Positions 13,951 through 52,799 of a stretch of DNA of 64,000 nt are shown piece after piece. Each line of letters opens with the position of its first letter. Position 1 is the first letter of the stretch. Origin of the DNA: Psammoneis japonica (Eukaryota). The notes beneath the pieces were generated by a model. The model had not been told where the DNA came from and did no database searches. It saw nothing but the letters and a program-made list of their open reading frames with translations. The stretch covers positions 466,404 to 530,403 of the forward strand of contig QPGO01000001.1 of assembly GCA_008632985.1 (NCBI GenBank), in the 5' to 3' direction. A program made the translations under genes and the position numbers.

Positions 13951-14798
13951 ACGCTGGAACACATGCACTAAAATGATTGAAAGAATAAAGGCATCACGCA
14001 CACACAGCAGCGTGACTGGTCAGTCTGCACGTCATGCGATGCGGAAAGCAGAACCGTTATTTCAACGGCGGTCACATTACAATGTAATCAGTCATAAATG
14101 TTTATATGATCGTAAACTCTCGCCAAAAGCCAAAAAACAAGGCAGAACGCCATGAGCCATGAGATGGTAATAACAGCCAACCTTTTGTTTTTCAACCACA
14201 GGAAAAGACGTTCATTTCGACAGAACCTCATCCAAAGACACAACGTCCTGAATGGGTGAAAAGCAAAGTGCCGCTGCTGCTGTAAATTATGAACTTGAGG
14301 GGAGTGATTTGCTTCCGAAAAAGACAAGAAACAAGAAAGAGCCACTTGTGTCAGTGCCCGCGTTCACGCACATCATGCTTCAAAGGTCCCTGTGAAGAGA
14401 AGTGTGCCCATGGCATGCCACTTGTCGAATCGATGCGTTGATATGAAAGGATCGAAATTCGAAACAAAGCTTCTCGGACCTTATGTGTGGCATCATGGTG
14501 TGCGCATCGCGAATCTCTTCGTGCGGCACGAGCAAGTGTCGACATGCTCTTTTCGACAAGTGCTTGCACGGGGCCTCTCTTCAGTTTGGATTACAATCGC
14601 AAGAATGGCTTTCTCTCACTCTGTGGAGAGAACGCCATTGTGCCGTCTTTTTCCCTCGTTTGCGAACGCGAGTGTCGGAACATGTATCGACTGCGTAGAT
14701 TCTACGCAGGCAAGACTTGGGATCGCGGAAGCAAATGAGTTCTCATTATTCATTATTTTGTACCGGTACACATCAAGACCAGACTATTGTGAATTGCC

Positions 14799-16655
14799 AT
14801 GATGAATCATCGTAACAAGACATTGAAAAGATTGGAGAAACGTCTTGGTCGCCGTGGCAGGCAAAACCACGATGAAGGAGAAGGCTTACCGGCATTGGAA
14901 GGACGGGCAACAGCAAGATATGCTCTCGGCTCCATCAACGATATTCGTGTTGACGAGGAGAATATGGAAGAGGAAGAAAAGATTGAAGAAACTGATGAAA
15001 GTACTCCAGCATCTGCATCGGCTGGTGCTCATGCAGTGAATCAACAAGGGGAGGTCCGTCGTGGTAGTGCACAAGCAGGCGGCGACGATATTAGCATCGC
15101 CATTGAATCTGACTTGGAGACAGTACAATCGGATCCCATGCCTCCTCCACCGCCAATGCAGGGCAATGACGCACTTCTTGTAGAAGCCCATTTAGTTGAA
15201 CCGACTGATAATGCAGAAGATGTGCGAGAACAAATGGCTACACTCGAGCAAGAAAATATGCGACTTCGCAATAAAGTTCCGCTAGTACAAGCCGAGGTCG
15301 CTCAAGAAAGTGCGAGAAATAAGGGCCCTCGTCGCAAATGCTTTATTGTTCTGGGTGTTACAGCAGCTCTGGTCACTGTGGCAGTTGCAGTTGGAGTTTC
15401 TGTCGCTGGAGGCGGTGGCGCTTTTTCGCCGCCAACAAGCAGTCCATCAACGCTTGTGCCTGCTAGTTGGCAACTCGTCGGGCAAGTCTTGCATGGCGAA
15501 ACTGCTGTTGATTTGTTTGGCACTTCAATATGCTTGTCATCAAGTGGAAATATCATGGCGGTAGGAGCAGCTCAAACTTCCAATCCCGGCTATGTTGTTG
15601 TCAATCGATATAATCCAGCCACCCAACAATGGATGCAAATTGGCCAAGAATTGGTTGGACAAGCCCGGGGTGACAAGTTTGGCGAGTCTGTTTCGTTAAA
15701 TAGCGACGGTACAATTCTAGCAGTTGGAGCTCCATGGAATGACAGTGGTGGAACGAATGCCGGTCACGTTCGGGTATTTGAACACGACTCTGCATCGGAT
15801 CAATGGGTCCAACTCGGCAGCGATATTCAAGGACAAAGCGCTGGTGATCATTTTGGGTTTTCCGTGTCGCTTTCGGGTGCAGGAGACATTCTTGCTGTTG
15901 GAGCTGTTTATGATGACACGAAAAATGGCACCAAGTGTGGATCGGTTCGATTGTTTCAATACGACCGCGGCTCCTCATCCTGGAGCCATCTCGGACAAAC
16001 ACTATTTGGCCAAGCTGATGATGATCGTTTTGGTTTTTCTGTTTCCTTAAGTCAATTGGGAACCATTGTTGGGGTTGGAGCACCTCACAATGAATCGGGG
16101 GTAGACACTGCTGGCCAGGTGTCGGTGTTTGAATACAATTTTGCATCATCAAGCTGGGATCTGCTGGGTGATCCAATCAATGGACCAGTCGATCGTGGTT
16201 ACTTGGGACACTCTGTTTGTCTTGATGACAGTGGCTTGATCATGGCAGTGGGTGCTGCACATGGAAGCGAGAGAGTTCTGGTTCATTCGTACGACCGGTC
16301 AACTTCAGCATGGAATCAATGTGGCCAAACTCTCTCGACGCGACAGCCCGGTGATTGGTTTGGTGGGTCAGTGTCGTTGAGTGGCAATGGAGATGTGTTG
16401 GCTGTCGGAAGTCGTGATCATGAAGTAGATGGATCATCATACGTGGGTCAAGTCCGAATCTTTCAACACAACAGCAACACAACCAAGTGGAATCGGCTTG
16501 GTGATCCTTTAAATGGCATGGCTGAATTTGATAATTTTGGAAATTCCGTGTCTTTGTCGGCAAACGGAAGCATCGTTGGAGTTGGTGCGAGGTTCACTGA
16601 TGTCAATGGCGAATTTTCCGGATCGGTGTATGTGTTTAAATCGAAGATTGTTTAG
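14799..16655 (+). CDS. Type II membrane protein with FG-GAP/integrin-alpha-like 7-blade beta-propeller (copy 1, intact)
   Basis: 618 aa. An acidic disordered N-terminus with GAHAV and LVEAHLV motifs is followed by a coiled coil, basic residues, a single TM helix (CFIVLGVTAALVTVAVAVGVSV), a P/S/T stalk and seven FGxSVSLS...LAVGA repeats. Confidence 0.9.
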   Translation: MMNHRNKTLKRLEKRLGRRGRQNHDEGEGLPALEGRATARYALGSINDIRVDEENMEEEEKIEETDESTPASASAGAHAVNQQGEVRRGSAQAGGDDISIAIESDLETVQSDPMPPPPPMQGNDALLVEAHLVEPTDNAEDVREQMATLEQENMRLRNKVPLVQAEVAQESARNKGPRRKCFIVLGVTAALVTVAVAVGVSVAGGGGAFSPPTSSPSTLVPASWQLVGQVLHGETAVDLFGTSICLSSSGNIMAVGAAQTSNPGYVVVNRYNPATQQWMQIGQELVGQARGDKFGESVSLNSDGTILAVGAPWNDSGGTNAGHVRVFEHDSASDQWVQLGSDIQGQSAGDHFGFSVSLSGAGDILAVGAVYDDTKNGTKCGSVRLFQYDRGSSSWSHLGQTLFGQADDDRFGFSVSLSQLGTIVGVGAPHNESGVDTAGQVSVFEYNFASSSWDLLGDPINGPVDRGYLGHSVCLDDSGLIMAVGAAHGSERVLVHSYDRSTSAWNQCGQTLSTRQPGDWFGGSVSLSGNGDVLAVGSRDHEVDGSSYVGQVRIFQHNSNTTKWNRLGDPLNGMAEFDNFGNSVSLSANGSIVGVGARFTDVNGEFSGSVYVFKSKIV

Positions 16656-17249
16656 ATGTGCATTTTGCATTTCATGCCTTTGTCTCTTCAGTTGTTGAAT
16701 GACATTTTGCAGTCATAGAAAATAAATTCGATCGACTAGACTGCTGCTTCTTGCTCCTGACACATCATCATCATGTTCGTTGAAAATCAAAAGAGAGCAA
16801 CATGGCATCACATGCCCTTGGAGAGAAATGCAGCAGTGCAAAACAAAAACCAACATCTGCTGCGCTTGTTTTGCAATCATGGCACATGCAGAACTGCAAT
16901 GTGCAGTGCTGTTCAATCCATTGCTCCTTCTTCCCCACAACCAACTCCCACTCTAAGTGGAACATTGTCAAGCCAGAGATTTTGACAAACATTCACACAT
17001 GGAAAACAGTGAATCTGTGCACAGAATGTTGTGGTTTGTGAGCTTGCCTGTGAGCCCCTCCCTGAAATGATGGACTTTCTTGGCCATGTTCATGAGACTG
17101 GTGACAATGTGCGCCCCTCAAACTCAAATCATGAGCAGAAAGCTCTTGTGCATGCCTTGGTCAAGGAGGTGCATCCAACATCCTGGGTGACCAGCTGCTC
17201 TGTGACATCTTTAATGTTTGCAATCATCATGCAGCACTTGCAGCAGACA

Positions 17250-18492: not shown

Positions 18493-19830
18493 TCAATTCC
18501 TTGTCACGTCTGCAGTGCAATGACTGAGTGCTGTGTCAACTGTGTGCACATTTTCTTGCCACAACTCTCTTAAACCAAGCTGACAATCATCATCAGACTC
18601 GTCTTCATTGGACTCGTCTTCATCGGATTTGTCTCCTCCATTGTTCGTTTTTCCTTTTGCGCCTTCCTCCTGCTCATCGTCGTCACTGTTGTCATCCCTG
18701 CTGCTCTCCACCATTGGGCTGTTCATTGCCTTCACCTTCTCCACATCACCGGTCGGTGCCATCTTCTTCTTCTTTTTTGCTTCTCCAGACTTCTCGTGCT
18801 CGCTTTTCTTGATCTCCGCGTGCCACTTTTCAAACTCCTTGCCCTCCTTGGAGTCTCTGTCTTTCGTCACCTCTGTGCACAAATCGTTGAACCAAATGAT
18901 TCCGTCGTCTCCCCAAGACTCTCGTTGTTTCTTTGGCTTTGTGCACCGAGGGGCAGGCCTTGTTTCTTTGGGCTCCATTTCCTCACCCAATTCTTCCACC
19001 GCCTCCTCCTTGTTCCTGTGTGCCCACACCTGCCAACAATTCTCCACAGCCAATGGCGCCAAAGCTTCGTCACCCACCGCAAACAACTGTGAGACCTGTG
19101 CATTCCCAGTTTTGATGGTGTGACTCCATGCCTGCTTTTGCTTGGTTTGAGGTGGGATGTGATCACAGAACCACTTGCATGCCTGCTTGTTCCTTCGTTT
19201 GCCGCCGGTGACAGTGTCCAGGCCAAACGGATCCCATGTCGGCACAAACGGGATGTCATTCTCTTCATTCTTGTCACGGCTTGACTTTTTCCTGTTTTGC
19301 TTTTTCCTCCTGACTGCCGCCTTGAGTTTCTTTTCTTTTTCCTTTCCCTCTTCCTCAGTGACAACGCCTGTGTAGATGAAGCATCACCGTCATCTTCTTG
19401 TGAGACACGTGCAACTCTCGAATCACACACATTGGTCACTTGGCTTGCGGGCCATTGTCTCCGCCCCAATGGCCGAACACACCGTGTTTCTGCGATTGTC
19501 AATTTGCCTTTTTACCGCCTTTTTTGCCCATTCCTCCCAAGTTCCTGACCAATTTGAAGTGTCCATGTTGCCACCAGCAATCTGTTTCTTGACAAACATT
19601 GAGACGCTCCCATTGCTTGCCAATTCTGACGGACTGAGAAACTTCACCTGTGGAAAGAGATCATTTCTAGCCACCTTCTCTACTTCTGATTTCAGTGCAC
19701 CATGCGCTGCCTGCGCACCTGTTCTCTTCAACACTGCCTGAAGTCTCAGGCTCATTGGCTTGAAAGTCTCATTTTTCTTTCTCTTCTTTGCCGGTGGTGC
19801 TGGAGATGACATCTTGATCTTCACACAGCA
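18493..19830 (-). pseudogene. Transposon-associated accessory ORF (two segments, probably intron-split or frameshifted)
   Basis: Motifs LFPQVKFL, DEALAPLAVENCW and PRCT...WGDDGIIWFNDL...DR fit the DEA..LL..ENY / YT...W...G...FN pattern I recall from diatom TE-linked hypothetical proteins. Tyr positions are converted to Cys. Confidence 0.5.
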
Positions 19831-20535
19831 ACAATGAGAGCAGTGTTGCTGTTCGACAGTGCAACCGTCGTCTGGGTCGTGTTGAGACAGCCAGCCACTC
19901 CATTTTTCTCTGTGACATTGCAAGGGTCATTGTCAGCAACATTGAAATTTGAAAACATGTTTGTGTGCAACAATGAATGGTCCAACTCACTTTTTGACAT
20001 GGCTGTCATTGCGTTCCAATGGAGATGGTGTCCTTCATTTTGACAGCAAATAAAAAAGAACAACATTCATTGTAAATGCCAGATAAAAAATCAAAATGCA
20101 GACATGTCACACCCATGAGAATCATCCAAATCTGGAAGACAATGTAATGTTTGCCATTTTCCCGCCATTTTTTGCACGCTGTTCTTCTTTTCCCTTCTCA
20201 TCCACAAGACAAGGATGACGAGCATGAGTCTTGATGAAGGCCCTGTCAACATTGACAAGAGAACTGTGAGGCAACGGCATCAGCGTGCAGACTTGGTCAG
20301 TCGCTGGCAGCTTGATCACAAATGAAACAACTGGCTTTCAATGCCTGAGAAGACTCAGTGCTCACCCAAGTCATGGGTTGTCCCTGTCGAAGCAATTGGG
20401 GACAATGTTTTGGTTTGTGAACAATGTCCAGGAGTGGCAGAAGTGCAAGAAAAGGCCACATTTGTTTGGGCTGCACAGGACAGAAGGAAGTGTTGGCAAG
20501 ATTTGTTTCTAAAACAGGGTGCGCGTGTCAATCTG

Positions 20536-21666
20536 TCATTCACTCACAGTGACCACCTGGCTCTTTCTTGCAAACATGATGAATTTGATCCTTTCAGAAT
20601 TGGCAAAGTCATTGCGGCACACGTGAAGCAGTGCGGTGCGAGCACCTTCCGTTGCTTTCGTTCTGATGTCTTCTTCGGAAACTCCAAGACAAGCTTCTTC
20701 CTGATCGGAAGGCTTTCCCAACCACCGTTCTCGTTGTTCTTGGGTCATAAGGTTGCTTGCAAAGAACACACCAGCATGGCTCTTTGCAGCATCCTTGTCC
20801 ATTGTGCATGTGTCGAACACAGCCAACAATTTCTTCCATTGTTTGACAACCTGGAAGAAGGTTGCAAGAGTGAAGGGAATCACTGTGTCCCCCCCTTCTT
20901 CGTTTTTGGAGAGCAAGGCCCGAAGATCAATTAGATTTTGGAAAAATTGAGTCGTCCCAAAACGACTGTCGCACCACTCTCCATCTGGCATCCAGCAGCA
21001 GTCCAACATGATTTGGTCGAACCCATGGTTGTTGAAATCAACAAGTTTCTCAAACTGCTGCTTGACTCTCTTGACAAAATCTCTTGCTTTCACATTGCAA
21101 TCCAAGTGCAGATCAGGATGTCTGTCTTGGAGAGAAACTGTTGGAACGACGTTTGTGATTGTTTTGTTAGATTCCTCAAATGCCACTGCGCGGGCCTTGT
21201 CTTGCCTGTGTTGGTCGGATGACACTAAGGCCACCCCCTTCTCAGAGCACAATTCTTGAGAAGACAGTTGCCTTGCATTGAGCGGACGGGTCATCCCCAA
21301 CCACAGCACATTGTGTGTTTCCCCGTTGGTTTCGTCACTTGCGAAACAATCTCCTGAGTTGCCATGGTCCTCTTCACCCTCAGAGCAATGTGCAACTTGG
21401 TTGTGCTCATCGTCAACAGGCTCTTCGCTTTTGTCCTCTTCACCCATGCAAGCAGTTGGAAGTTTGCTTGTTTTCTTGTCAATTGACTCCTCCTCGCAAT
21501 CGTCACTTTTGTTCATTGCGAATGACAACAAATCACCGGCGGCCTTCTTCCTGTTAGAACGAGAAATCAATGTGACAATGTTGGCACAATCAGACAAAAA
21601 ACAAATGTGATTGCCATGAAAAAGCAACCTCTCTTTGCCATTCCAGTTTGGCTCAAACTTCATCAA
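20536..21666 (-). CDS. Putative Rossmann-fold (amino-)methyltransferase-like protein, TpA-mutated
   Basis: 376-aa open frame with no Tyr. It has a motif I-like NVLWLGM, a motif IV-like FDQIMLDCCWMP (codons TGC TGC; restored LDYYW) and a motif VI-like LL...GGDTVIP. Confidence 0.45.
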   Translation of the reverse strand: MMKFEPNWNGKERLLFHGNHICFLSDCANIVTLISRSNRKKAAGDLLSFAMNKSDDCEEESIDKKTSKLPTACMGEEDKSEEPVDDEHNQVAHCSEGEEDHGNSGDCFASDETNGETHNVLWLGMTRPLNARQLSSQELCSEKGVALVSSDQHRQDKARAVAFEESNKTITNVVPTVSLQDRHPDLHLDCNVKARDFVKRVKQQFEKLVDFNNHGFDQIMLDCCWMPDGEWCDSRFGTTQFFQNLIDLRALLSKNEEGGDTVIPFTLATFFQVVKQWKKLLAVFDTCTMDKDAAKSHAGVFFASNLMTQEQRERWLGKPSDQEEACLGVSEEDIRTKATEGARTALLHVCRNDFANSERIKFIMFARKSQVVTVSE

Positions 21667-28909: not shown

Positions 28910-29440
28910 ATGTGCACGGCAACAATGTCCAAGCATGATGGCAAAGGATCATCTGGCTCAGGCTTTTGAGCAAAGCCCCATTGCACTGGACTTGACAGGT
29001 GGGTTTTGATGCACAATCCCAGTCAGAGCTCAAAGCAAGGGCCCCTCTTGAGGCCCACCAAACTGGTCTGCGCTGTGAGGGCAAGGCGCATCTTGCCAAA
29101 TCTGAGAGCCACATGGTGGGGTCAAAGCAGTCTTCAAGACAATTTTTTTCTTTTCTGCACTGAAGACAACTGCACTTTTGCTTCGTTCGAGGTGAAAGAA
29201 GCAGCTCTGCTAGAGAGAATGGAGAGACAGAGCAAGAGAGAGATGGGATCCACAGCACAGCAGCCCAATTCGTCACATGAAACGATGAGGATGCTATGAG
29301 CTCGCTCAGACCAAGCCGCGCTTTTTTCCGAGGTTGCGAGCTCGCATCTCAAAACATACCGTAATACTGTACCAGGGAACCTGTAGCTTCTACTGAGGAC
29401 TGAGGCACGACCGAGCATCGCGTTCCAGTTCTCATTTCTC
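28910..29440 (+). repeat. Upstream module of the FG-GAP repeat unit (copy before gene 2)
   Basis: CATCTGGCTCA...GCACTGG...AGGTGGGTTTTGATGCACAA...TTTTCTGCACTGAAGACAACTGCACTTTTGCTTC...GAAACGATGAGG is shared with 36075-36660 and 61547-61950. Confidence 0.9.
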
Positions 29441-29485
29441 GTGCTATTATTTTATGTGCTGCATAAAAAAAAAAGAGCGATCATC

Positions 29486-31425
29486 ATGATGAATCGTCGC
29501 AGCAAGGCCTTGGAAGTGTTAGAGAAAAGATTTGGCCGTGGTGGGAAGGGAGGCCACGAAGAAAAAGAAGAAGTGCAAGAGGAATTGGAACAAATCCAAC
29601 AAGAACAAGCAACTTGTGCCGCAGCCAGCGCTTCTCACGCAGACGAAGAGAATCAAGAAGAAGCTGATGAAACAACTCCGGCATCTGCCTTGGCCGGCGC
29701 TTTTGCAGTGAGTCAACAAGGGATGGTCCGTCGTGGTCGTGTACCAGCAAGCGGCGACGACACTAGCATTACCATTTTGTCTGACTTGGGGACGGTACAA
29801 TCTGAACAAACGATGCTTCATCCGCCGCCTACACAGGATGATGGCACACTTGTTGTAGAAGCCCATTTAGCTGAAGCGGATGACAATATAGAAGATGTAC
29901 GAGAGCAAATGGCTACGCTCGAGCAAGAAAACATTCGTCTTCGAAGTGAAGTTCCGCTGGTTCAAGCTGAGCTAGCTCAAGGAAGTGCGAGAAATAAGGG
30001 CCGGCGTCGCAAATGCTGCATTGTTCTGGGAGTTACCGCAGTTCTCATCACTGTCGCAGTTGTAGTTGGAGTTTCTTTCACTGGAGGCAGTGGCACTTTT
30101 CCGCCGTCAACAAGCAATTCATCAACAGTTTCTCCAACGTTGCCGCCCACTGTTCATCCCACTGCTGCTGGTTCTCTAACGTCGTGGCCGATCACTGTTG
30201 CACCCACGCTGTCTCCCACTAGAAGTCCGATTGCAGTCATTCCTACCGATTGGAATCCCGTTGGTCAAGTCTTACATGGCAAAGCGGAAGAAGATTATTT
30301 TGGCAATTCGGTGTCCTTATCTCGTGATGGTAGTGTCATGGCTGTAGGAGCAGTGCAAGGTTCCAATCCCGGCTATGTTGTTGTGCAACGATACGATCCA
30401 AGTACCCAACAATGGAAACAGATTGGCCAAGAATTGGTTGGACAAGCCAGTGGTGACGAATTTGGCGAGTCTGTTTCGTTAAATGGTGACGGTACAATTC
30501 TTGCCATTGGAGCAGACGAAAATGACGGTGGCGGGGACAATGCCGGTCATGTTCGTGTTTTGAATACAACTCTGTATCGGATCGTTGGATCCAACTTGGT
30601 AGCGATATTCAAGGACAAGACCTAGGTGATGAATTTGGTTCTTCCGTGTCGCTCTCGGATGCAGGAGACATTCTTGCCGTGGGCGCGCCTTTCGATAACA
30701 CGGAAAATGACAATAATTCTGGATCCGTTCGATTTTTTCGATACGACCGTGGCACATCCTTCTGGAGCCAACTTGGACAAACACTCATTGGTGGAGCTAG
30801 AGGTGATAATTTTGGCGTTTCTGTTTCCTTGAGTCAATCGGGAACCATTGTTGGCATTGGAGCGCATAAAGGCGATTCCGCTGGAGACAATGCTGGTTAT
30901 GCGTCAGTGTTTGAATACAATGCTGCATCGTCAAGATGGGATCTGTTGGGCGATCCAATCGAAGGACAAGTCGAACATGGTAAGTTTGGACGTTTAGTTT
31001 CTCTTGGTGATAGCGGTTTGGTCATGGCTATGGTTGAATATGGAAGAGTTATGGTTTCTGCATACGACCGCTCGACGTCGACTTGGAATCAACGTGGTCA
31101 AATTCTAGTCACGCAACAGCCCGATGATGATTTCGGTTTCTCAGTGTCGTTGAGTGGTAATGGAGATGTGTTAGCTGTTGGAAGTCCTGGTAATGACGTT
31201 GATGGACTCCTCGATGCGGGTCAAGTCCGAAACTTCGAATACAACAGCAACACAACCAAATGGAATCAAGTGGGCGATCCATTGAGTGGCGACTCTGAAG
31301 ACGATCGTTTTGGGTCTTCCGTGTCCTTGTCGGCCGATGGAAGCATCGTTGGAGTTGGTGCATGGTCAACCAATGTCAATGGCGACGCTTCTGGATCCGT
31401 GTATGTATTTACATCGAACAATTAG
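29486..31425 (+). pseudogene. FG-GAP beta-propeller membrane protein, copy 2 (single frameshift)
   Basis: MMNRRSK starts at 29486. GTTCGTGTTTTGAATAC at ~30551-30567 lacks one base relative to copy 4 (GTTCGTGTGTTTGAATAC). The propeller continues in ORF 30646-31425. The lesion could be a consensus error. Confidence 0.85.
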
Positions 31426-31560
31426 ATGTGTTTTTGCATTTCATGATTTTGTCTCTTCATATGGTCGACCAATGCCAATGGCGATGCTTCGGGATCTGTG
31501 CATGTATTTAAAAATCGAATAATTAGATGTGTATTTGCATTTCATGATTTTGCCTCTTCA
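31361..31560 (+). repeat. ~100-bp tandem duplication of the end of gene copy 2 and its proximal 3' flank
   Basis: ATGGTC(A/G)ACCAATG...AATTAGATGTG...TTCATGATTTTG.CTCTTCA occurs twice in tandem. Confidence 0.85.
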
Positions 31561-31774
31561 GTTTATAATGATTTCTTCGATCGAGTAGAGTGCTCCTTCT
31601 TACTCCTGATGCATCATCATCAGCACTTGTCTTACAAAGCATGGCATGTGCTGTACTGCAATGTTTGGTGTTGTTCAATCCATCGCCACTTCTCTGCCAA
31701 TCAACTTGCCACTGCTCCAAATTCCATTGCTCTCATTTTTATGCCAACGGTGAAATGCGAAAGGAGCAGGCATT

Positions 31775-31990
31775 TGACTGAATGACTCTGACAACACTTG
31801 CAAAAATCCCAAAGGCCGAGGCAAGAATTTCCACCATGAAAATCTTGACAAACAGAATGGCGTCTTTTGCATCCACCACCCCAGACAATGTTGATCAGAC
31901 CGAAACAGAGACTGGCCAAAAACATGCCATGGACTGCTGCCCAGCAGTGTCTGGCCCAAACCCAATTTTCACCCAATCAATGAAAAGAAT
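31775..31990 (-). pseudogene. Relic of the V-ATPase c'' proteolipid fragment
   Basis: The DNA is alignable to 39115-39365 (ATTTGACTGAATGA...AAAATCTTGACAAACAG...GCCAAAAACATGCCATG). It translates to HGMFLASL and, in another frame, LFVKIFMVEILASAFGIF. Confidence 0.7.
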
Positions 31991-32084
31991 TGGAGAAAAG
32001 AACGGTTGGCTGTGCTTGCAGCAAGTGAGGCAATGAAGAAATGGGGGCAGTGCAAGAAAACTTGGGACAAACCCAACAAGCAAG

Positions 32085-32830
32085 AACAGCATCATGAACA
32101 AAAAGTGTCATGACAGAACACTCATCTCAATGCTGCCAGTGCTTCTTGCACACTTGCAGATGAAAAGAATGCTGGAAAAGCTGGCAAAATGATTCCAACA
32201 TGCACATTGACTTGCAGTTTTGCAGCAGCAAATTGACAAGAAGGGGTGGTCCACTGTGGTCGCAGACAAGTGAGTGGGGACAATGCCAGCATCATTGTGT
32301 CATCATGTCTGGCATGGGAGTGATGCAATCTGAGCCTGTGCCTCCACCAGGACAATGGTGGACAGATGGCAGTGCAGAACATGTGTGAGAACAAGTGGCT
32401 GTGTTTGGTTGGGAAAATGAGCACCATTGTGAAATGAAGGTCTGCTGGAGCAAGCTGAGCTTTCTTTTAAATGCATGAGAAAGCAGGGCGGTCATCAAAA
32501 GTTCTTTGTTTTTCTGGGAGCTCTGTTGAGAGTCACTGTGGCAGTTGCAGTGGTTTTTGGACTTTCTCTGTTGCAGGAACTGTGCCACTTTTCTGCCATC
32601 AAAAAGCAAGCCATCATTGCTGGTTGCACCAACTGCCAGTGCCACCCCCAAGAACACAGTTGCCTGCCACTGGCCTCTGCCCATGCAGTCTCCTGCTGTT
32701 GGAACTCCAGGGTTGCCACAAACTCTCTTTGCAGATGTGGGTGACCAGCAAGCAAGCCTTGTTGGATGGCAAAACTGCTGCTGATTTGTTTGGTGCTTCA
32801 GCACCCCAGTCATCAGCACCAAGTGGATGC
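32085..32830 (+). pseudogene. Degenerate 5' part of an FG-GAP gene copy
   Basis: Homologous segments include GAGAACAAGTGGCT, CAAGCTGAGC, GTCACTGTGGCAGTTGCAG and ATGGCAAAACTGCTGCTGATTTGTTTGG. TpA and CpG are erased. Confidence 0.75.
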
Positions 32831-32999
32831 CAGCATCAAATTGAAACATTGGCTGGACACAAGCCAGCTCTCAATTGACAGCTGTTTGCACAACTGAAAG
32901 ATTTTGTCAACGCGCTGGCTTGCACAGACAAACAAATCTCATCACTCTCAAGATCAGTGCCTCTTTGTGTTGTGACACAATTGTTGCAATGAAAGTGGG

Positions 33000-36074: not shown

Positions 36075-36660
36075 GGCGGCAATTTGGGGACAATGTGCAC
36101 ATGGCAAAACAATGTCAAAGCATGATGGCAAATGAACATCTGGCTCAAGCTCTTGAGCAGAGCCCCATTGCACTGGTCTTGGCAGGTGGGTTTTGATGCA
36201 CAAACCAAATTAGAGCTCAAAGCAAGGGCCTCTTCAGGTGCACCCAAACTGGTCTGCTGGTGCACTGTGCTGAGGGCAAGGTGCTTCTTGCCAAATCTGA
36301 GAGCCACACAGTCAAAGCAGCCTTCAAAACAATTTATTTCTTTTCTGCACTGAAGACAACTGCACTTTTGCTTCGTTCGAGGTGAAAGAAGCAGCTCTGA
36401 CAGAGAGTGGAGAGACAGAGATAGAGCAGAGCGAGCGAGAGAGAGACAGGATCCACAGCACAGCAGCCTAATTCGTCACATGAAACGATGAGGATGCTCT
36501 CTCTACTCTAGCAGCTAGCCCCAGGTAGAGAGCTACTGTAGCCAGTAGAGAGAGTACGAGCTCAGACCAGGCCGCTTGCGACATACCAGGAGACCTGTAG
36601 ATTCTACTGAGGCACGACCGAGCACCGCAATATCAGAAATTCGCATCGCGTTCTCATTTC
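36075..36660 (+). repeat. Upstream module of the FG-GAP repeat unit (copy before gene 3)
   Basis: Same module as 28910-29440. Confidence 0.9.
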
Positions 36661-36701
36661 TCGTGTACCGCATGTTTAGCATAAAAAATAGAGCAATCAT
36701 C

Positions 36702-38684
36702 ATGATGAATCGTCGCAGCAAGGCCTTGGAAGTGTTAGAGAAAAGATTTGGCCGTGGTGGGAAGGGCGGCCATGAAGAAAAAGAGGAAGAAGTGCAAGAG
36801 GACCTGGAACAAATCCAACAAGAACAAGAACAAACACGATCGAATGCAGCTTCTGCCGCTGCCAGCGCTTCTCACGCAGACGAAGAGAATCAAGAAGAAG
36901 ATGATGAAACAACTCCAGCATCTGCCTTGGCCGGTGCTTTTGCGGTGAATCGATAAGGGATGGTCCGTCGTGGTCGTGTGCAAGCAAGCGGCGACGACAA
37001 TAGCACCACCATTGTGTCTGACTTGGGGACGGCACAATTTTGGGATCCCATGCCGCCTCCACCGCCTACGCAGGACGATGACACACTTCTTGTAGAAGCC
37101 CATTTAGCTGAAGCGGATGACAATATAGAAGATGTACGAGAACAAATGGCTACACTCGAGGAAGAAAACATGCGTCTTCGAAATGAAGTTCCGCTGGCAC
37201 AAGCTGAGCTAGCTCAAGAAAGTGCGAGAAATAAAGGCCGTCGTCGGACATGCTTTATTGTTCTGGGAGTTTCAGCACTTCTGATCACCGCGGCAGTTGC
37301 AGTTGGAGTTTCTGTCACTGGAGGTGGTGGCACTTCTCCACCGTCAACAAGCGAACCATCAACGCTTTCTCCAACGTTGCCGCCTACTGTTTATCCCACT
37401 GCTGCTGGCACGATTCCCCCGCAGTCTCCAACGTGGCCGATCACTGTTTCACCCACGCAGTCTCCCACTGGAACCCCGATTGCAGTCATTCCTACCGATT
37501 GGAATCCCGTTGGTCAAGTCTTGCATGGCAAAGCGGAAGGTGATCGTTTTGGCTATTCGGTGTCTCTGTCGGATGATGCAAGTGTCATGGCTATTGGAGC
37601 AGCGCAAGAATTCACTCACGGCTACGTTGTTGTGCAACGATATAATCCCGCTACGCAACAATGGACACAAATTGGCTCAGAATTACACGGACAAGAAGAA
37701 AGTTTTGGAGAGTCTGTTTCATTAAATGGCAACGGCACAGTTCTTGCGATTGGAGCGGATACGATTTACAGCGGAGGATCCAAAGCCGGTCATGTTAGCG
37801 TGTATGAATACAACTCTGTATCGGATCAATGGGTCCAACTCGGTAGCGACATTGTAAGAAAAGTTGATTCTACTGATTTTGGTTTTTCCGTGTCGCTCTC
37901 GGACGCGGGAGACGTTCTTGCAGTGGGAGCGTATGTGGATGATACGGAAAATGGCGATGGTTCTGGATCGGTTCGATTGTTCCAATACGATCGTCTGACA
38001 TCCTCCTGGAAGCAACTTGGACAGACTCTGATTGGTGAAGCTGGCGGTGATCGTTTTGGCATTTCCGTTTCTTTGAGCCGCTCGGGCTACATTGTTGGCA
38101 TTGGAGCGCCTTGGTGTGATTCGGGTGGAACTGATGCTGGTCAAGTGTCGGTATTTGAATACGATGCTGCATCCTCATCATGGGATGTGCTGGGTGATCC
38201 AATCAACGGGCAAGTTTCAGCTGGAGGGATTGGATATTCTATTTCTCTTGATGACAGTGGTTTCATCATGGCGGTGGGCAGCCCTGGATATTTGACCGAC
38301 GAGAGAGTTCTGGTTTATTCATACGACCGTTCCATGTCGACATGGAATCAACTTGGCCAAACTCTCTTTGCGCAACAGCCAAGCAATGATTTCGGCTCAT
38401 CAGTGTCGTTGAGTGGTAATGGAAATGTCTTGGCTGTCGGAAGTGATTCTTATATCATTAATGGATTAACTGACGTGGGTCAAGTCCGAATCTTTCAATA
38501 CGACAGCAACACGGCCAAATGGAATCAGTTGGGTGATCCTTTAAATGGTGAGGCTGAAGAAGATTATTTTGGGTATTCCGTGTCCTTGTCGGCAGACGGA
38601 AGCGTCGTTGGAGTTGGTGCGACTTGGACCGAATTCAATGGCTGGGAGTGCGGATCCGTGCATGTATTTTCATCGGACAATTAG
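36702..38684 (+). pseudogene. FG-GAP beta-propeller membrane protein, copy 3 (one in-frame TAA; may be expressed from ATG 36960)
   Basis: MMNRRSK starts at 36702. AAT CGA TAA GGG at 36948-36959 corresponds to AAT CAA CAA GGG in copies 1 and 4. The downstream 574-aa ORF retains the TM helix and the full propeller. Confidence 0.85.
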
Positions 38685-39114
38685 ACTTGTATTTGCATTT
38701 CATGATTCTGTCTCTTTCGTTAGAGTGCTCCTTCTTACTCAAGACGACCGACGCATCATCGTCATGTTTTTTGAAAAACAAAAGAGAACAACATACCATC
38801 ATACGTATCCATAAATTTGTAAAAGAAGTGTAGAACAAAAGCCACGGTCTACTACTTGATCCAGCCATCGCACTTCTTCTCCATAACCAACTCTAACTCC
38901 AACTAATTATCATTTTTTAGAATAGGTCGATTTGCTTGGACACTCCGTATGCTACAGAGAGAAATGCGGAAGAAGTGTCAAACAAAAGACAGCATCTACT
39001 ACTTGCTACTTTTGTTACAATCATGGTATATGTACGGTGTTGCAATGCCTAGTGTCGCGTTCAATCCATCGTTTCTTCTCCAACTCGCTACTACTCCAAA
39101 TATACAATTACTAC

Positions 39115-39460
39115 ACGCATTCGACTGAATGATGCCCACAATACCGGTAATTCCAAAAATACCCAACGCCGACGCAAAAATTTCCACAATTAAAATCTTG
39201 ACAAACAGACTGGCATCCTGTGCATCCGCCAAGGCACACGACGATCCGGCAATGCCGACACTGACGCCCGAGGCAATGTTGGTCAAGCCGACACTGAGTC
39301 CTGCCAAAAACATGCCATGCCCGGCACAACAATGTCCGGTCCAATCCCAATTTTCATCCAGATGACAAACGGCATCGTCCGGGGGCCTTGACCTTGTTGG
39401 CAAGAACAATGGCCATGATTGCTCCGTAAATGGCAGCGGCTTTGCAGAAAATGACACTGG
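39115..39460 (-). pseudogene. V-type ATPase 21-kDa proteolipid subunit c'' C-terminal fragment (VMA16/ATP6V0B-like), frameshifted
   Basis: [22 protein letters not shown] is followed, in another frame, by [58 protein letters not shown]. The proton-carrying Glu of IFCEA reads K, and no N-terminal half is visible. Confidence 0.85.

Positions 39461-39505: not shown

Positions 39506-39535
<30 letters not shown>
39506..39535. repeat. (GA)n microsatellite
   Basis: Direct reading. Confidence 0.95.

Positions 39536-41881: not shown

Positions 41882-41884
<3 letters not shown>

Positions 41885-41914
<30 letters not shown>
41885..41914. repeat. (AG)n microsatellite
   Basis: Direct reading. Confidence 0.95.
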
Positions 41915-42097: not shown

Positions 42098-42925
42098 ATC
42101 ATGATGAGTCATCACAGCAAGGACTTCAAAGCATTTGAGAAAAGGTGTGGCTGCAGCAACAAAAGAGGCCTGGAAGAAGAAGAAGAAGAAGAAAAAGAAG
42201 TGCAAGAGGACTTGGAGCAAACACAAGAAGAGCAAGAGCAAGAACAAGCATGATCAAACATTGCCTTTGTTGCTGCCAATGCTTCTCATGCAGACAAAGA
42301 GAATCAAGAAAAAGAAGATGATGAAACAACTCCAGTGCCTGCCTTGGCCGGTGCTTTTGTGGCAAATCTACAAGGGATGGGGTTCGTCTTGGTTGTGCGC
42401 AAGCAAGTGGCAATGACACTTGCATTGGCATTTTGTCTGACTTGGGGAGGATGGCGCAATCTGAACTCATGCCTCCTCAACCACCACCCAGTTGAGATGC
42501 CAGCACACTGTTGGTTGAAGCTCATTTGGCTGAGCTGACTGACAAAGCAGAAAGAGCTGCAAGACAAGACTTGAGCAGAAATTTCAATTCTTCAAAAGTT
42601 GGCGCTGCTTGCTCAAGCTGAGCTGACCCCTGCCAATGAAGAGGAGCATTCACATGGCACCACATGGATCCAAAAATGATGGCCAGACCAAAGCCAACTG
42701 GGGTGTGGCTTTTATTTGTGAAGATGGAATCAAGATTCAATGCAAACACCTGAGATTGTGCTTGGATGTGTGTTGTTGACAGCTGCTGTTTCTGCAGTGA
42801 CTCCTGCAGTGGTGCTGATTTCAAGGAACAACAACAATTCTGAGCATTTTGAAATGCAGGTGCTAACTCCTGTTCCACCTGCCTGTTGGATTCCTGTTGG
42901 TCAAGTCTTGCATGGCAAAGCAGAG
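42098..42925 (+). pseudogene. Degenerate 5' part of an FG-GAP gene copy
   Basis: ATCATGATGAGTCATCACAGCAAGG...GAAGTGCAAGAGGACTTGGA...GCCTTGGCCGGTGCTTTTG...GTTGGTCAAGTCTTGCATGGCAAAGC aligns with copy 3. It has stops and frameshifts, and TpA and CpG are largely erased. Confidence 0.88.
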
Positions 42926-43989
42926 CACATGGCAATCCACAAAGAATTCTGCATGTGGGTTGGTGCATCGTGAAGTCATCAGCACAGGTCCAATGCATGA
43001 GAGCTTTTGACACTGGCTCAAAGTGCTCTTCATGAGACACAAGGAAATCACTGTCTGATTTGATCATGTGTGAGTTCCTGATGAGCACACATGCAAACAA
43101 TTGGAAGATTCAATTGAAATGAGCACTCACAAGGACAGTTAAAAATCACTCACAAGATCAATGACCCTTTGTGTTGTGATGCAATTGGCACAACAAAAAT
43201 TGGAAACAAAGAGCAGCCATTTGATTTGATGCACTCCGGCGGGTCTTGTTGATGCATCAAAACATTTGCAACTGCATGAAGACATTGTTCTCCAATCACC
43301 AAAGCAATCACAAGTTGGCGACCATGCAAAGATTGCGCAAATGTTTTTTTTGAATGCATGCATTCACCTGTGGCTGGAGCATGTCAGCAAAACGAACACA
43401 CCATTGCCACAAAGTGCACAGCGCCATGATGCCAACAAGCAGCTCACTTGGTTTCTCTTTTTCTTTGGTGCGCGTGCTTGCCCCAAGAGTTTGTTCTCTC
43501 TGAAAATGCCAGCTGGGGGAGGGGCCAGGAGATCAGCACTGGAGTGGGCAGCAAGTCTCCCACTGGGGAGGTGGCAAATGGCAGCCATTCTCTTTGCAGC
43601 ACAAGCTGAGCTTTTGTTTTGATCAAGATGGCAAGGAAGCAGTGGCTGCTGTTTCAATTGAATTGTGAGTGAGAGTTGGTGGTTGGATAAATGTCTGATT
43701 GAGCAGCTCCACCTTGGCCACTTGCATTGCCATTGTTTGTCACATTTGATGGAAAATTGGCTTCCCCAATTTTGATCATTCATTCATTTGTTGCAAAAAC
43801 TTTGGAAAGGAACCATGGCCCACCCAGCCTGCTCACCACCACTCTCCCAGTTCTGCAACCATGCCCACCAGTGCATTGGACTTGACTGCATGATCATCTG
43901 CTGCAGTTGATCACACCACCTTGGCAACCTCTTGTTGTGCCGCAACCTTTGCATCTCAACCGCCCCCCAGTTTTGTCTTTCCGGGTTAC

Positions 43990-47125: not shown

Positions 47126-47801
47126 GCTTGTTCTTGTGGGTGTGGCGTTGCATCGACATTGTTGTTGGTGGGGCCGGTGCGTTGTCTCTTTCATTCATTT
47201 CCTTCATCACATGTTTCTCTTGACCTGTTCTTGGCGGCTCTTTGGCAACAGAATGCTTCAAGGGAGAGGCGAAGCTTTGACAGCAACTTGTCGGGGAGTG
47301 TGGCTTGATTTTGGGGCGGCTTGTTTGCAAGAGAATTCCTCGTGTCACAGCTTCCACGGGAAATAAAATGCTCTTGCTGGTTTCCTCGCTGCCTGCCAAA
47401 AAAAGGTGAGATCCAAGTCTTGGGCGATGTTGCTTTGTTTTCAAACTTTTCCCACAATTTTTGTCTCGCAGACATTGCTTCCCCTTTCCTGAACATTCCT
47501 GCCAAACCACCATTGTGCGTGGCAAACATGCACTGAATGGCTCCTGCACTTGATTCTCGGTGAGTGATCTCGCAAATGGTTGATTGGAGGGCAGCCTTCA
47601 CAGTGTTCCGACAATCAACGCGTGAGATTCCCCCTTCTCGAGCATCGTGGGTGATGGATCGGCGGCACCCGTTGTTGATTTGCACGACATCTTTTGGACC
47701 GCAAACAACCAAATCTTCCGGCATTAGACGCAGCTGAAAATTCATCGTAGTGTCTGTCGATCTGCAGTGTCCGAAGTTTTAAAACTTAAAACTCTTAGTA
47801 C

Positions 47802-47825
47802 GTTTTCGCGCTTTCGCGCGAAAAC
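47802..47825. repeat. GC-rich 10-bp hairpin at an insertion boundary
   Basis: GTTTTCGCGC-TTTC-GCGCGAAAAC lies a few bases before homology to the FG-GAP upstream module resumes. Confidence 0.75.
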
Positions 47826-48003
47826 CACGATTTTTCCCCGAGTTTGCGAGCTCGCATGTCAAGACATACCAGGAGAGCTGTAGATTCTACAGAGGCATGA
47901 CCGAGCGTCGCGAAAATGATGTCGGGTTCGCATCGTTCTCATGCACACATACAGTGCAGAACAACTCGATGCTGATTTTTGTGGATTTTTCGCAGTAATC
48001 ATC

Positions 48004-49905
48004 ATGATGAATCGTCGCAGCAAGGCCGTGAAGGTGTTAGAGAAAAGGTTTGGCCGTGGTGGGAAGGGAGGCCACGAAGAAAAAGAAAAAGTGCAAGACT
48101 TGGAACAAATCCAACAACAACAAGAACAAGCAAGATCGAATAATGCGTGCGCCGCTCCCGGTGCTTCTCATGTAGACGAAGAGAATCAAGAAGAAGCAGA
48201 TGAAACTACTCCAGCATCTGCCTTTACCGGAGCTTTTGCAGTGAATCAACAAGGGATGGTCCGTCGCGACCGTGTACAAGCAAGTGGAGACATTACTAGC
48301 ATGAGCATTCTGTCTGACTTGTCGACGGTGCAATCGGATCCCATGCCCCCCCCGCCACCCGGTCGAGATGCCAGTGCACTGCTGGTCGAAGCGCATTTGG
48401 CGGAAACGACTGATGATGCGGAACGAATGGCTACACTCGAGCAAGAAAACATGCGTCTTCGCAATGAAGTTCCGCTAGCACAAGCTGAGGTTGCTCAAGA
48501 AAGTGCGACAAATAAAGGCCGTCGTCGGACATGCTTTATTGTTCTGGGAGTTTCAGCACTTCTGATCACTGTGGCGGTTGTAGTTGGAGTTTCTGTCACT
48601 GGAGACCGCGGTGCTTTTCTACCGCCAACAAACAGTCCATCAACGCTTGCGCCTACTACTGGTGATACGAGTTCCCCGCAGCCTCCAATGTGGTCGCCCA
48701 CTACTAATTGGCAACTTGTAGGGAATGTCTTGCATGGCACAACTGCTTCAGAGTTTTTCGGCACTTCAATATCCTTGTCATCAAATGGAAATACCATAGC
48801 GGTAGGAGCAACGCAAGGTACCACTCCTGGTTACGTGATGGTCCACCGATACAATCAAGCCACACAACAGTGGTCGCCCATTGGACAAGCATTGGTTGGA
48901 CAAGCCGGTGGTGACGATTTTGGCGAGTCTGTTTCGTTAAATGGTGACGGTACAATTCTTGCCATTGGAGCCAACGAAAATGATGGTGGCGGGGAAAATG
49001 CCGGTCACGTTCGTGTGTTTGAATACGACTCTGCATCGGATCGTTGGGTCCAACTCGGTAGCGATATTCTTGGACAAGACGCTGGTGATGAATTTGGTAT
49101 TTCCGTGTCGCTCTCTGATGCAGGAGATATTCTGGCCGTGGGAGCTTTTCGGGATGACACCAATGGTGAGCGTTCAGGGTCTGTTCGATTGTTTCAATAT
49201 AACCGTGACACTTCATCCTGGAACCAACTTGGCCAGACACTATTTGGTCAAGCTAGTGGTGATTTTTTTGGGTTCTCGGTCTCCTTGAGTCGGTTGGGAA
49301 CTATAGTTGCCGTTGGAGCAGAGGGGAATGATTCCGGTGGTGGCAATGTTGGTCAAGTCTCGGTATATGAATACAATTCTTCGTCTTTGAAGTTTTATCC
49401 ATTGGGCAATCCAATCAACGGAGGTAACCATAGTACATATTTGGGTAGTTCTGTATGCCTCGATGACAGTGGATTGGTCATGGCTGTGGGTGCACCATCA
49501 TGGAACAATGAAGACGAAAGAGTTGTCGTCTTCGTCCACGACCGTTCGACGTCGACATGGAATCAACGAGGTCAAATTTACTCATCATTTCTTCAACAAG
49601 ATCTTTTTGGCCACCCTGTTTCTTTGAGTGGAAATGGGAATATATTGGCTGCTGGAACTCAGTTGTCGTATGGCACCGAAGATGGAAACTATCTAGTGGG
49701 TCAAGTTTTGATATTTCAATACAACAGCTCCGCAGATGACTGGATTCAATTCGGCAATCCTTTAAGCAGCGGGGATATTGAAGATAGCTTTGGACAATCC
49801 ATTTCATTGTCGGCCGATGGAAGCATCGTTGGAATTGGTGCGAGGTGGGCTGATGTCAATAGTGTTGGTTCAGGATCCGCATATGTATTTACATCGAACA
49901 ATTAG
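48004..49905 (+). CDS. Type II membrane FG-GAP beta-propeller protein, copy 4 (intact)
   Basis: MMNRRSK starts at 48004, within ORF 47941-49905. The architecture matches copy 1, with seven blades. Confidence 0.9.
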   Translation: MMNRRSKAVKVLEKRFGRGGKGGHEEKEKVQDLEQIQQQQEQARSNNACAAPGASHVDEENQEEADETTPASAFTGAFAVNQQGMVRRDRVQASGDITSMSILSDLSTVQSDPMPPPPPGRDASALLVEAHLAETTDDAERMATLEQENMRLRNEVPLAQAEVAQESATNKGRRRTCFIVLGVSALLITVAVVVGVSVTGDRGAFLPPTNSPSTLAPTTGDTSSPQPPMWSPTTNWQLVGNVLHGTTASEFFGTSISLSSNGNTIAVGATQGTTPGYVMVHRYNQATQQWSPIGQALVGQAGGDDFGESVSLNGDGTILAIGANENDGGGENAGHVRVFEYDSASDRWVQLGSDILGQDAGDEFGISVSLSDAGDILAVGAFRDDTNGERSGSVRLFQYNRDTSSWNQLGQTLFGQASGDFFGFSVSLSRLGTIVAVGAEGNDSGGGNVGQVSVYEYNSSSLKFYPLGNPINGGNHSTYLGSSVCLDDSGLVMAVGAPSWNNEDERVVVFVHDRSTSTWNQRGQIYSSFLQQDLFGHPVSLSGNGNILAAGTQLSYGTEDGNYLVGQVLIFQYNSSADDWIQFGNPLSSGDIEDSFGQSISLSADGSIVGIGARWADVNSVGSGSAYVFTSNN

Positions 49906-50145
49906 ATTCGTATCAAGTTCGAATCTTTCAAATCAACAGCTACACGACCAAATGGAATCATTTTGGTGATCCTTTAAGTGGCGAGTCTGAATATGGTCAT
50001 TTGGATATTCCCTTTCCTTCTCGGCAGACGGAAGCGTGTTGGAGTTGGTGCGATTCATGCTGACATCAATGGTGAATTTTCCGGATCCGTTTACATCGAA
50101 CAATTAGATTTGTATTTGCATTTCATTATTTTGTCTCTTTCGTTG
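49906..50145 (+). pseudogene. Extra degenerate last propeller blade plus 3' flank
   Basis: CAAGTTCGAATCTTTCAA...GGTGATCCTTTAAGTGGCGAG...GGCAGACGGAAGC...ACATCGAACAATTAG repeats the gene end, with indels. Confidence 0.85.
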
Positions 50146-52799
50146 ATCATGTTTGTTGAAAAGTCAAAGACAGCAGCAGTTTTTTAATAGAGAGAAATAC
50201 AAAAGAAGTGTGTGGCAAAAGGCAACGTCTAACACTTGTCATATACGTGTGCCGGCAGTGGTGTTCAATCCTCTCGGAGGAGTCACCGCATGACAGTGGC
50301 ATGCAGCAGAAGGCAGACAGATGACAGACAAGAACAATGAGAGGCCACCCCAGTTCCCCTCATTGTGCTTGGCGGATCACCAGTGACAATGGGATCAGTT
50401 GCATTGACCTGACATGTTCCTGCAATGCTGAAAATTCCCACCTGTCCCAGCCCTCTGTTTCACACAGTGTTGGGGAACAAAATGGAAGGAACCAGATCCA
50501 CAGATTTGTTCCTGTTTTCCAGCTGCTGTCTCAGCAGCACCACACAAACACATGCACTTGTGTGTTTTTCCACATGTTGGATGTGTTCATGTGCTGATTT
50601 TGCAGCTGGTCACTGTGAAATGTCATCGGGGTTGTAGTCAAGCCAAGGCAGTGGCGGGGAATCTGTGATTCCGAGGTCTTTGAGTGCTTCATTTTTGCTT
50701 CAGATGAGCATTTGTTGCAAATTTTGCGATTCGGCAGCAAACAGGTGTCAGGAACAAACAGGCACATCAGATGAAGCATGGACCAACCACAAAAAGCAAG
50801 GGAACTTTCTCGCAAGTTCTTCCGTGCAAGACAAGCAGGTGACAGACAGACAAATGTGATGGAAGAGTCATTCATCAACCAATTTTTGTGAGACAAAAAA
50901 CATCAGATGCGTCACATGGTGAGCGACAAGCACAGATGTGCACCCACATTGACCCTGGATGCATGTGGTTGATTTCAGGGCATCATTGCTGCTGGCTGAT
51001 TGGAGCTGTTGGATGGACACCAGCGAGCCCAACATTGCATCAGCTGCACTTGTCATGTTTGTGTTGTTGCTGCTGCATGCCTGAAATTAGAGCAGATGAT
51101 GTTTTTATCCCCACATGGTTGCCGTTGTTGCTTGTCATGTTGTGTCACATTTTTGTGCATCTCTGTTGTGTTTTTGTGTGTCTCAGTTGCATTTTTTCAT
51201 TCAACTCAATCCTTTTTTGAAATTGTGCGCAATGGACAGCTTGCCAAGTTCATTTTTGGCATGTCAGCATGAAGTTGTGCAGATCTGCACACACAAGTTT
51301 CTGTGTGCATTTGCAGTGAAGCAGCAGTTGGACCCATCAGCTCATTCAATTTGTGCAGCAACCCACCTTGCATGCCACACTCACAGTGGTGATGACATGC
51401 AACGGCGTTGTTTGTGCTCTGACGTGACCTTGCCACATCACATCTCCCTCGCCATGGAGTTTTAGAATGTCGCTGACAATTGTCTCAAGATGATGGCCAG
51501 TTGTGACTGAGTGCTGGGGGTTTTGCTTCACCATGAAAGGATGCTGTTAAACCCATCAACATGAAGTGCAATGGCACTGGTGTTGGAACAGTGACAATGC
51601 ATTCCCCTTGGCATCATCAAGATGCTGGCATGCAGTGTGGAAGACTCAGCAGTTCTCAATGTAGCGGCACGAGACAGTGGAGTTGGCTGGGAGCCCAAGG
51701 AGCACTTGTCCTGAATGTGTTTCTGTGGATGCAAGAACCGCAAATGATGTGTTGGCCACATTGGAAGTTGCAGAGAGCATTGGTGGAATTGAACACAGCG
51801 ACTTGGCAGAGAAGTTTTCAGCAATGTTGGTGAGGAAGTTGGGTGTGGCAGTCATTTGAGAATGATTCAAAGTGGGTGATGCAGGCAACCCAACAACATG
51901 CAAACAGCTGTGCAGTCTGTTGAAGCTTCTGACCAGCTTTGAAGGCAATTTGTTTTGTCTGTTGATGGACCAACCATCTGTGTGTCATGTGACAACAATG
52001 TTTTGGCATTTTGCACTTTGCATTCATGCCAGCAGTGTTTTGGCAATGACGTTTGCTCTCTTGCAACCTCTTGCTTCATGCCACATGTTGTTCTTGTGTT
52101 GGAGCTTGCAGAAATTGTGATTTTTGTGTGCATGTGTGAGAAACTGTTGCACGCAGAAACACATTGAATTTCCACTGGCACACCAAAAATGAAACTCGGC
52201 AAGCTGTCCATTCCCAAATGGTTGGTTTGCCAGTCAGCAAAACACCAGGAAACAGTGTCTGACTCCTGCTCATTCTTTTTGTGGCAGCTGACATCACCTC
52301 CTGCATCTTTTGCAAAGAACCCATAAAAAAATGGTTGCACTCCACCTGGAAACAGAAAATTGATGCAACAGCAGCATCACACCAACTGGGTGTTGGAATG
52401 ATGTGATGCCAATGATGGCAGCAGCACAAGAAGACATCTGCAGTGCATGAGCTGGGTGCCCAATTGCACAAAGAGTGTGGTTGCACATTCTGTGGGCACA
52501 TGCATTGCAAAATGTGACACCAGTCTTTTTTTGTGTCAAACGCAATTGTCGGCCATCAGGAAGTGCTGAAGCAGACCCAACATTGCTCCTTTCCAAAGCC
52601 AAGATTGAAGCACCTGCTGAAGCAACACTTTCTTTCACAATTGCAAGAGCTTTGTTCTCTGCATGTTGAAAAGGATGGGGTTGATGGGGTCAATGAGTCG
52701 TTTGACAACAAGCGACAAGAGAGAGTCACCTTTCCAACTCTTTTGCCAGATTCACTTGACAGAGTGCTCCATCCATTGTTCTAACTTTGATTTGAAGGA

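Follow-up and report, generated by a model that had tools for sequence, protein, structure and literature searches.

Loss of TpA is bounded near genes in a diatom FG-GAP gene array, with chromosomal position as its likely rule

Repeat-induced point mutation (RIP) mutates both copies of a duplicate, acts before meiosis and depends on RID/DIM-2. For recognition, the available part of one account states that at least 80% identity over at least 400 bp is required (PMC3017866). A different dinucleotide is attacked in Bigelowiella natans, for which the accessible portion of Mettrop et al. (bioRxiv 10.64898/2026.01.13.699255) describes TpA to TpG/CpA hypermutation of integrated nucleocytoplasmic large DNA virus (NCLDV) and virophage DNA; there an NCLDV region with TpA hypermutation is single-copy and transcriptionally silent, open reading frames (ORFs) resembling those of transposable elements are depleted, and an ADAT-type deaminase is the candidate enzyme. 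The targeting rule is a question left open by that report. In the diatom Phaeodactylum tricornutum, transposons carry DNMT5-dependent CG methylation together with methylation of histone H3 at lysine 9 (H3K9me2/3) and lysine 27 (H3K27me3), according to the accessible text of PMC9998398. Here we describe the loss of TpA in a 64,000-nucleotide stretch of the diatom Psammoneis japonica (the window), which spans positions 466404–530403 of contig QPGO01000001.1 (C2; assembly GCA_008632985.1, 91 Mb) and contains four genes with PF14312 (FG-GAP_2) domains, each inside an island that keeps its TA dinucleotides. The observed/expected ratio of TpA across the window is 0.19, and those of CpA and TpG are 1.55 and 1.57. 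Islands and stripped DNA were called with a two-state hidden Markov model (HMM), which short stripped stretches may escape, and contig-scale tests cover 890,000 of the 1,169,119 bases of C2. The stripped state makes up 62% of these 890 kb and has a TpA of 0.07 versus 0.54 in the kept state, which shows that the loss is confined to discrete regions.

The conversion is specific for TpA, affects both strands, can be one-sided between two copies, occurs earlier than the loss of CpG, and is bounded near genes. In eight one-sided alignments, 239 of 296 ancestral TA dinucleotides were found to have become TG (115) or CA (124), as expected of a process acting on both strands. It is also biased by context, with ATAT and ATAC nearly gone and TTAA and CTAA enriched among the surviving sites. 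The order of events is illustrated by an inverted duplicate (C2:414459–415173 versus 443150–443860) in which 20 of 35 TA are converted in a mosaic pattern, with 2 other changes in 671 positions (0.3%) and none of 32 CG lost.

An earlier reading made from the sequence alone had proposed that the FG-GAP paralogs keep TpA and CpG while related relics at 32.1 and 42.1 kb are stripped of them. This was confirmed, coordinates included (TpA 0.40–0.52 and CpG 0.90–1.01 in the four copies, TpA 0.02–0.05 in the relics; Table 1). Of the sites that are TA in most live copies, none of 9 survives in the two relics, and of the corresponding CG sites 2 of 32 do; in relic-versus-live alignments, T>C and A>G changes occur at a background of 5–11%. 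The relics are not full-length dead siblings of the genes but 5′ fragments of about 0.8 kb that lack the propeller. The HMM islands around the copies (13906–16737, 29211–31654, 35778–39191 and 47725–50244) extend 275–924 bp before the ATG and 82–507 bp past the stop codon, in agreement with the proposed protection of a few hundred bases beyond each gene. The proposed fading of that protection fared less well, since a fragment of a V-ATPase proteolipid gene downstream of copy 3 shows a step more than a fade. Compared with the intact gene, it has 12 of 13 ancestral TA converted at 39235–39460 and 13 of 15 kept at 38940–39235 (Fisher p ∼7e-5, calculated with 12 instead of the aligned 13 kept proximal sites), with the transition about 510–590 bp past the stop codon of copy 3. 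In general, dead fragments right beside genes mostly keep TpA, and the same sequences farther off do not.

Table 1. Coordinates of features in the window (positions are those of the window; TpA and CpG values are given where available)
Feature	Coordinates	Strand	Remarks
Sulfatase-domain gene, control island	10048..12225	+	comparable margins: 416 bp 5′, 301 bp 3′
Stripped relic fragment, absent from the sequence-only reading	13240..13480	+	
FG-GAP copy 1, intact	14799..16655	+	predicted transmembrane segment and PF14312 propeller; TpA 0.40, CpG 0.90; leakiest copy; 3′ margin 82 bp
Copy 2 upstream module	28910..29400	+	also at 36093–36600 and 61546–61947; TA first at 29211 and 29295, dense from 29357
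FG-GAP copy 2	29486..31425	+	TpA 0.45, CpG 1.01; 1-bp loss in T run near 30557
Short dead 3′-end duplicate behind copy 2	31461..31560	+	TpA kept
Older V-ATPase fragment	31640..32000	-	14/15 aligned TA converted
Relic 5′ fragment (32.1 kb)	31980..32850	+	1 TA in 871 bp; TpA 0.02, CpG 0.06; without start codon or upstream homology
FG-GAP copy 3	36702..38684	+	TpA 0.43, CpG 0.98; TAA at 36954 where paralogs have CAA
V-ATPase proteolipid (PF00137) fragment across boundary	38940..39460	-	most TA retained up to 39192, conversion from 39278 on; CpG kept throughout
Relic 5′ fragment (42.1 kb)	42098..42930	+	3 TA in 833 bp; TpA 0.05, CpG 0.11; ends at propeller start
FG-GAP copy 4, intact	48004..49905	+	TpA 0.52, CpG 0.93
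Old dead 3′-end duplicate directly behind copy 4 stop	49913..50145	+	70–80% identity to live copies; TpA 0.40, CpG 1.19
Stripped relic of FG-GAP 3′ end and 3′ flank	52740..53060	+	
Two short stripped V-ATPase fragments	53920..54145	-	0 TA in 226 bp
Copia-type element	54776..61546	+	both long terminal repeats and body TA-stripped, CpG largely kept

The same boundaries were observed on the scale of the contig. Around 93 Tyr-containing ORFs, TpA drops to about half of its gene-edge level 500–700 bp outside both ends; such ORFs were called live by their Tyr content, a definition that is circular for the ORF itself but not for its flanks. Median island margins are 514 bp on the 5′ side (n = 62; 10th–75th percentile 220–980 bp) and 720 bp on the 3′ side (n = 44), with a range from 16 bp to more than 3 kb. 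Whether a gap between live ORFs contains stripped DNA depends on its length: none of 28 gaps under 2 kb, 3 of 10 at 2–3 kb, 13 of 14 at 3–5 kb and all 39 over 5 kb are stripped.

Position is the likely rule, and of the possible targeting cues chromatin or transcription state is likely the best inference that can be made from the sequence. We assign a probability somewhat better than even (roughly 0.55) to the reading that a mutator rewrites TpA in blocks of transposons and broken genes and is kept by chromatin off a 2–3 kb domain round promoter-bearing genes, whatever their copy number. The mutator would turn TpA into TpG or CpA in such DNA, and the shield would be active chromatin at the promoter and gene body that excludes the mutator or recruits repair, with some leakage. 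Active chromatin rather than protein function is favored as the shield because it covers about 0.5 kb 5′ of the ATG as well as a retrotransposon 5′ long terminal repeat (LTR) and leader, and chromatin is favored over transcription as such because upstream DNA is covered and protection ends where the coding body of the retrotransposon starts. The element in question is a young Copia copy (C2:229103–236220) whose 5′ LTR and leader (1.15 kb) keep TA; its body and 3′ LTR are converted, and both flanks are stripped. The 3′ LTR has lost 12 of 16 TA with 1 other change in 256 sites of the LTR pair. A copy that is truncated or separated from its promoter would fall into silent chromatin, would be converted within 1–3% background divergence, and would then lose CpG more slowly through deamination of methylated C. 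A near-full-length FG-GAP copy without promoter and ATG (C2:728798–731158), stripped to 0.09, represents a transitional stage between gene and relic: it begins inside the coding region after unrelated DNA, and its sole coding break is a CGA>TGA stop, with no frameshift. TA-keeping members of the family with broken frames but islands of their own also exist.

Two extensions of this reading were tried and rejected. General protection of 5′ LTRs was seen in one element only; in the remaining full-length matches to the 5′ LTR of this family, 2–5 of 16 TA survive. A decay of protection with distance from the promoter along long genes appeared in pooled data (0.31 to 0.17) and vanished in non-FG genes (0.32, 0.33 and 0.33 in successive thirds); because it is absent there, the pooled trend is an effect of the FG-GAP family.

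It is also conceivable, though unlikely, that the attack spreads from transposons, seeded by their silencing, and simply halts near genes, with no shield projected by the gene. The repeats and microsatellites beside the relics, the location of stripped DNA in long intergenic gaps, which hold transposons, and the variation of margins from 16 bp to more than 3 kb would all be accommodated by such spreading. On the other hand, 5′ margins cluster at 220–980 bp, and the Copia 5′ LTR and leader remain unconverted between stripped flanks. In addition, two stripped 2-kb stretches had no partner detectable over most or all of their length, which is a weak point in that the search does not prove rarity.

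A trigger by homology appears somewhat less probable again. Here pairing or small RNA would start the process, one copy would be silenced and converted, and the live paralogs would be survivors that drifted below a threshold. The sequence-only reading had discounted duplication as the trigger, a claim that the four window genes alone are insufficient to carry: their pairwise identity is 76–83% over aligned columns, 69–80% with gaps and 82–89% in the best 400 bp, and because this sits at the edge of the RIP requirement, a homology threshold cannot be excluded from them. Their low overall identity, with a longest exact run of 65 bp, in fact suits a threshold. The contig-scale repeat set, comprising 97 self-alignments of at least 400 bp and at least 85% identity, was more informative. 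In 58 of these both copies are stripped, as homology would predict, but 17 are kept in both copies, 15 are one-sided with the partner of the converted copy untouched, and 7 are mixed. The pairs kept on both sides span 85–97% identity, for example C2:558676/611027 (95.9% over 1.7 kb, 58 of 58 TA in common) and an FG-GAP pair (90.1% over 2.9 kb, with 47 TA in common and 8 versus 6 lost). One-sided pairs reveal how quickly conversion proceeds: in one example a copy has lost 61 of 67 TA (91%) with other divergence at 1.6%. The pairs kept on both sides are therefore much older than the time that conversion takes. At silent sites, the TpA odds ratio is 0.35 for genes without a partner on the contig (n = 51), 0.39 for duplicated non-FG genes (n = 20), 0.41 for the 13 of these with at least 85% identity, which thus show no deficit, and 0.06 for low-Tyr ORFs. 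This retention of TA at silent sites indicates that amino-acid selection alone does not explain the TpA of genes. Likewise, stripped bases have a partner about as often (39%) as kept bases do (37%), counting partners on this contig only. What homology could claim for itself is the silent TpA of the FG-GAP family, which is halved, most in the propeller with its at least 72 genome-wide matches. Judged from these alignments, duplication is probably not sufficient to trigger conversion.

The two FG-GAP copies with a lesion had been named among those that keep TpA and CpG, and they were found to deserve little weight. The 1-bp loss in copy 2 lies in a run of T. Two haplotype-like contigs differ by nine 1-bp indels, all in runs, versus 7 substitutions (window-equivalent 72–78 kb, about 6 kb), and because such indels outnumber substitutions the frame break points to an assembly error; the lesion is likely a homopolymer error of this kind or very recent. 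In copy 3, an in-frame ATG at 36960, one codon past the TAA, opens 574 amino acids with transmembrane segment and propeller. The ratio of nonsynonymous to synonymous substitution rates (dN/dS) is 0.36–0.52 in pairs with copy 2 or 3 and 0.31–0.55 in intact pairs, so that no relaxation is visible in the lesioned copies. Copies 2 and 3 were therefore rejected as examples of dead genes under protection. The least probable account, in which time and selection do everything (non-functional DNA converts steadily, selection holds the TpA of genes and TA-keeping dead copies died only recently), is helped by lesions in copies 2 and 3 that are recent or artefacts and by miniature inverted-repeat transposable element (MITE) copies that keep TA in stripped surroundings, but three observations speak against it: genes retain silent TA six-fold better than low-Tyr ORFs do, the V-ATPase fragment has a kept and a converted half although both are of one age, and old dead fragments (70–80% identity) keep TA when elsewhere 91% is converted at 1.6% divergence.

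Several observations weigh against a shield of active chromatin around promoter-bearing genes. Of 100 islands, 44 have no long Tyr-rich ORF, and the 42.1-kb relic has about 200 bp of homologous upstream DNA and is stripped nonetheless. MITE copies keep up to 85% of their TA with stripped flanks, 1.7–2 kb from a live ORF, from which it follows that youth also preserves TA; a comparison of their retention with distance gives rho −0.68 (p = 0.06, n = 8). The converted half of the V-ATPase fragment is 87% similar to the intact gene overall versus 76% for the kept half, and because it is the closer of the two the step does not cleanly exclude homology. Moreover, the kept, highly similar coding part has only 4 TA sites, 3 of them kept, and a V-ATPase piece just outside the window, between a fifth FG-GAP copy and a HOOK gene, shows 6 TA lost versus 2 gained. 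The escape of duplicated genes, as first proposed, is real in that TpA is kept but incomplete: copy 1 has lost 11 of 25 TA shared by the family (8 of 23 on a stricter count, versus 2–6 in the other copies), a sign of leakage, and the silent-site TpA odds ratio is only 0.19 (bootstrap 0.16–0.23) in the 22 FG-GAP ORFs on the contig and 0.15 in the propeller, about half that of other genes. Greater exposure at high copy number is one possible reason; since the 22 ORFs share ancestry, the deficit may also be one old event. Finally, the 97 alignments are not independent, many coming from a single Copia family, and some same-contig pairs kept on both sides may be mis-joined haplotypes.

Other features of the locus and contig were recorded alongside. 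The relics adjoin inserted repeats and microsatellites, and (GA)n tracts at 39506–39535, 41877–41914, 54300–54332 and 54615–54644 lie at or near junctions of rearranged fragments and just inside stripped DNA. Long ORFs at 18493–25844 are TA-stripped and retain CpG, with no Pfam match for the two that were scanned; this block is probably a mobile cassette converted after insertion. Beyond the window (L041:722–10307; window-equivalent 66356–74711) the array continues with copy 5, a V-ATPase fragment, the HOOK gene, the V-ATPase proteolipid gene in intact form and finally copy 6, which is inverted; one TA-keeping island of about 13 kb holds them all. The V-ATPase fragment that separates copy 5 from HOOK is old and diverged (74%) and has a TpA of 0.71. 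The best Atlas cluster for the HOOK protein consists mostly of Bacillariophyta. Copy 6 has a 5′ frameshift common to two contigs, which proved useless for dating a lesion, as only 3 substitutions separate the contigs in 2.1 kb there. A different FG-GAP array is found on G000:C315:1–50000 (L043–L047), with the 32.1-kb relic tandemly doubled and the Copia element inverted. It is a probable alternate haplotype, and its comparison with the window suggests that the array is rearranging fast. Elsewhere on C2, 91176–120162 and 142226–167936 form either a large direct duplication or a mis-joined haplotype. Two gene pairs within it have retained TpA on both sides, and an unidentified ORF region of 2.8 kb has been converted on one side only. 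A 390-bp MITE family (for example at C2:170957, 685457 and 727494) ranges from 27% to 100% TA retention at 1–3% background divergence; some converted sites are common to copies, and for this reason partly converted copies seem to have transposed. The closest propeller relatives listed in a protein homolog search are distant (31–46% identity) and mostly bacterial, many of them with Bacteroidota annotations of sorting by the type IX secretion system, and that search found no outgroup for the FG-GAP genes. The propeller domain may have come from bacteria and then expanded to 70+ copies.

An adenine deaminase of the ADAT/TadA type would be the enzyme to which the mutation spectrum and the proposal of Mettrop et al. 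point. The genome has 9 matches to PF00383, unclassified and of a gene type that is universal, and 27 matches to PF00145, the family that bears on the RID/DIM-2 dependence of RIP, likewise unclassified. More tentatively, diatoms may run a default-on adenine mutator that erases TpA wherever no promoter holds DNA open. Active chromatin would then be the signal of self, gene-family expansion would be licensed, and promoterless copies, host or foreign, would be killed within 1–3% divergence, an inverse of the logic of RIP. Should position be what decides, and not homology or foreign origin, gene duplication would remain allowed under this defence, in contrast to RIP; the genome has at least 72 FG-GAP matches. 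Past gene activity could in that case be read from TpA content as a fossil map, and silencing would put transgenes in such diatoms at risk. With the boundaries reported here, the targeting question becomes testable.

Among known systems, the silent-chromatin compartment of P. tricornutum could define the target and explain the CpG decay seen here, although the accessible text of that work reports no TpA mutation (PMC9998398), whereas in P. japonica TpA loss precedes CpG loss. Like RIP in Neurospora and other Pezizomycotina, the process uses dinucleotide-specific transitions to wreck repeats and dead gene copies after insertion. Unlike RIP, which changes C:G to T:A and makes TpA from CpA or TpG, it destroys TpA; pairs at 85–97% identity are spared or hit on one side, contrary to the homology rule in the available account of RIP, and in place of mutation of both copies 15 of 97 alignments are one-sided, with the intact V-ATPase gene and one LTR untouched. 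In plants, gene bodies marked by monomethylation of histone H3 lysine 4 (H3K4me1) reportedly have a lower mutation rate (PMC8810380; bioRxiv 10.1101/2022.05.28.493846). The resemblance is that active-gene chromatin lowers local mutation, but the plant bias is modest and general and is not the exclusion of a context-specific hypermutator. The closest match is Bigelowiella: our literature search found no report of TpA loss in diatoms, and Mettrop et al. was the only paper on TpA loss that it found. As far as the accessible portion of that preprint goes, the TpA to TpG/CpA spectrum and the regional confinement are alike, while in P. japonica 62% of 890 kb is stripped to 0.07, the distance from genes to the edges is about 0.5 kb or less, and CpG is lost afterwards. 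The target there is viral, whereas here host V-ATPase and FG-GAP fragments are converted, and because host-gene fragments are targets, foreign origin is not the rule. The type of mutation has already been published for Bigelowiella.

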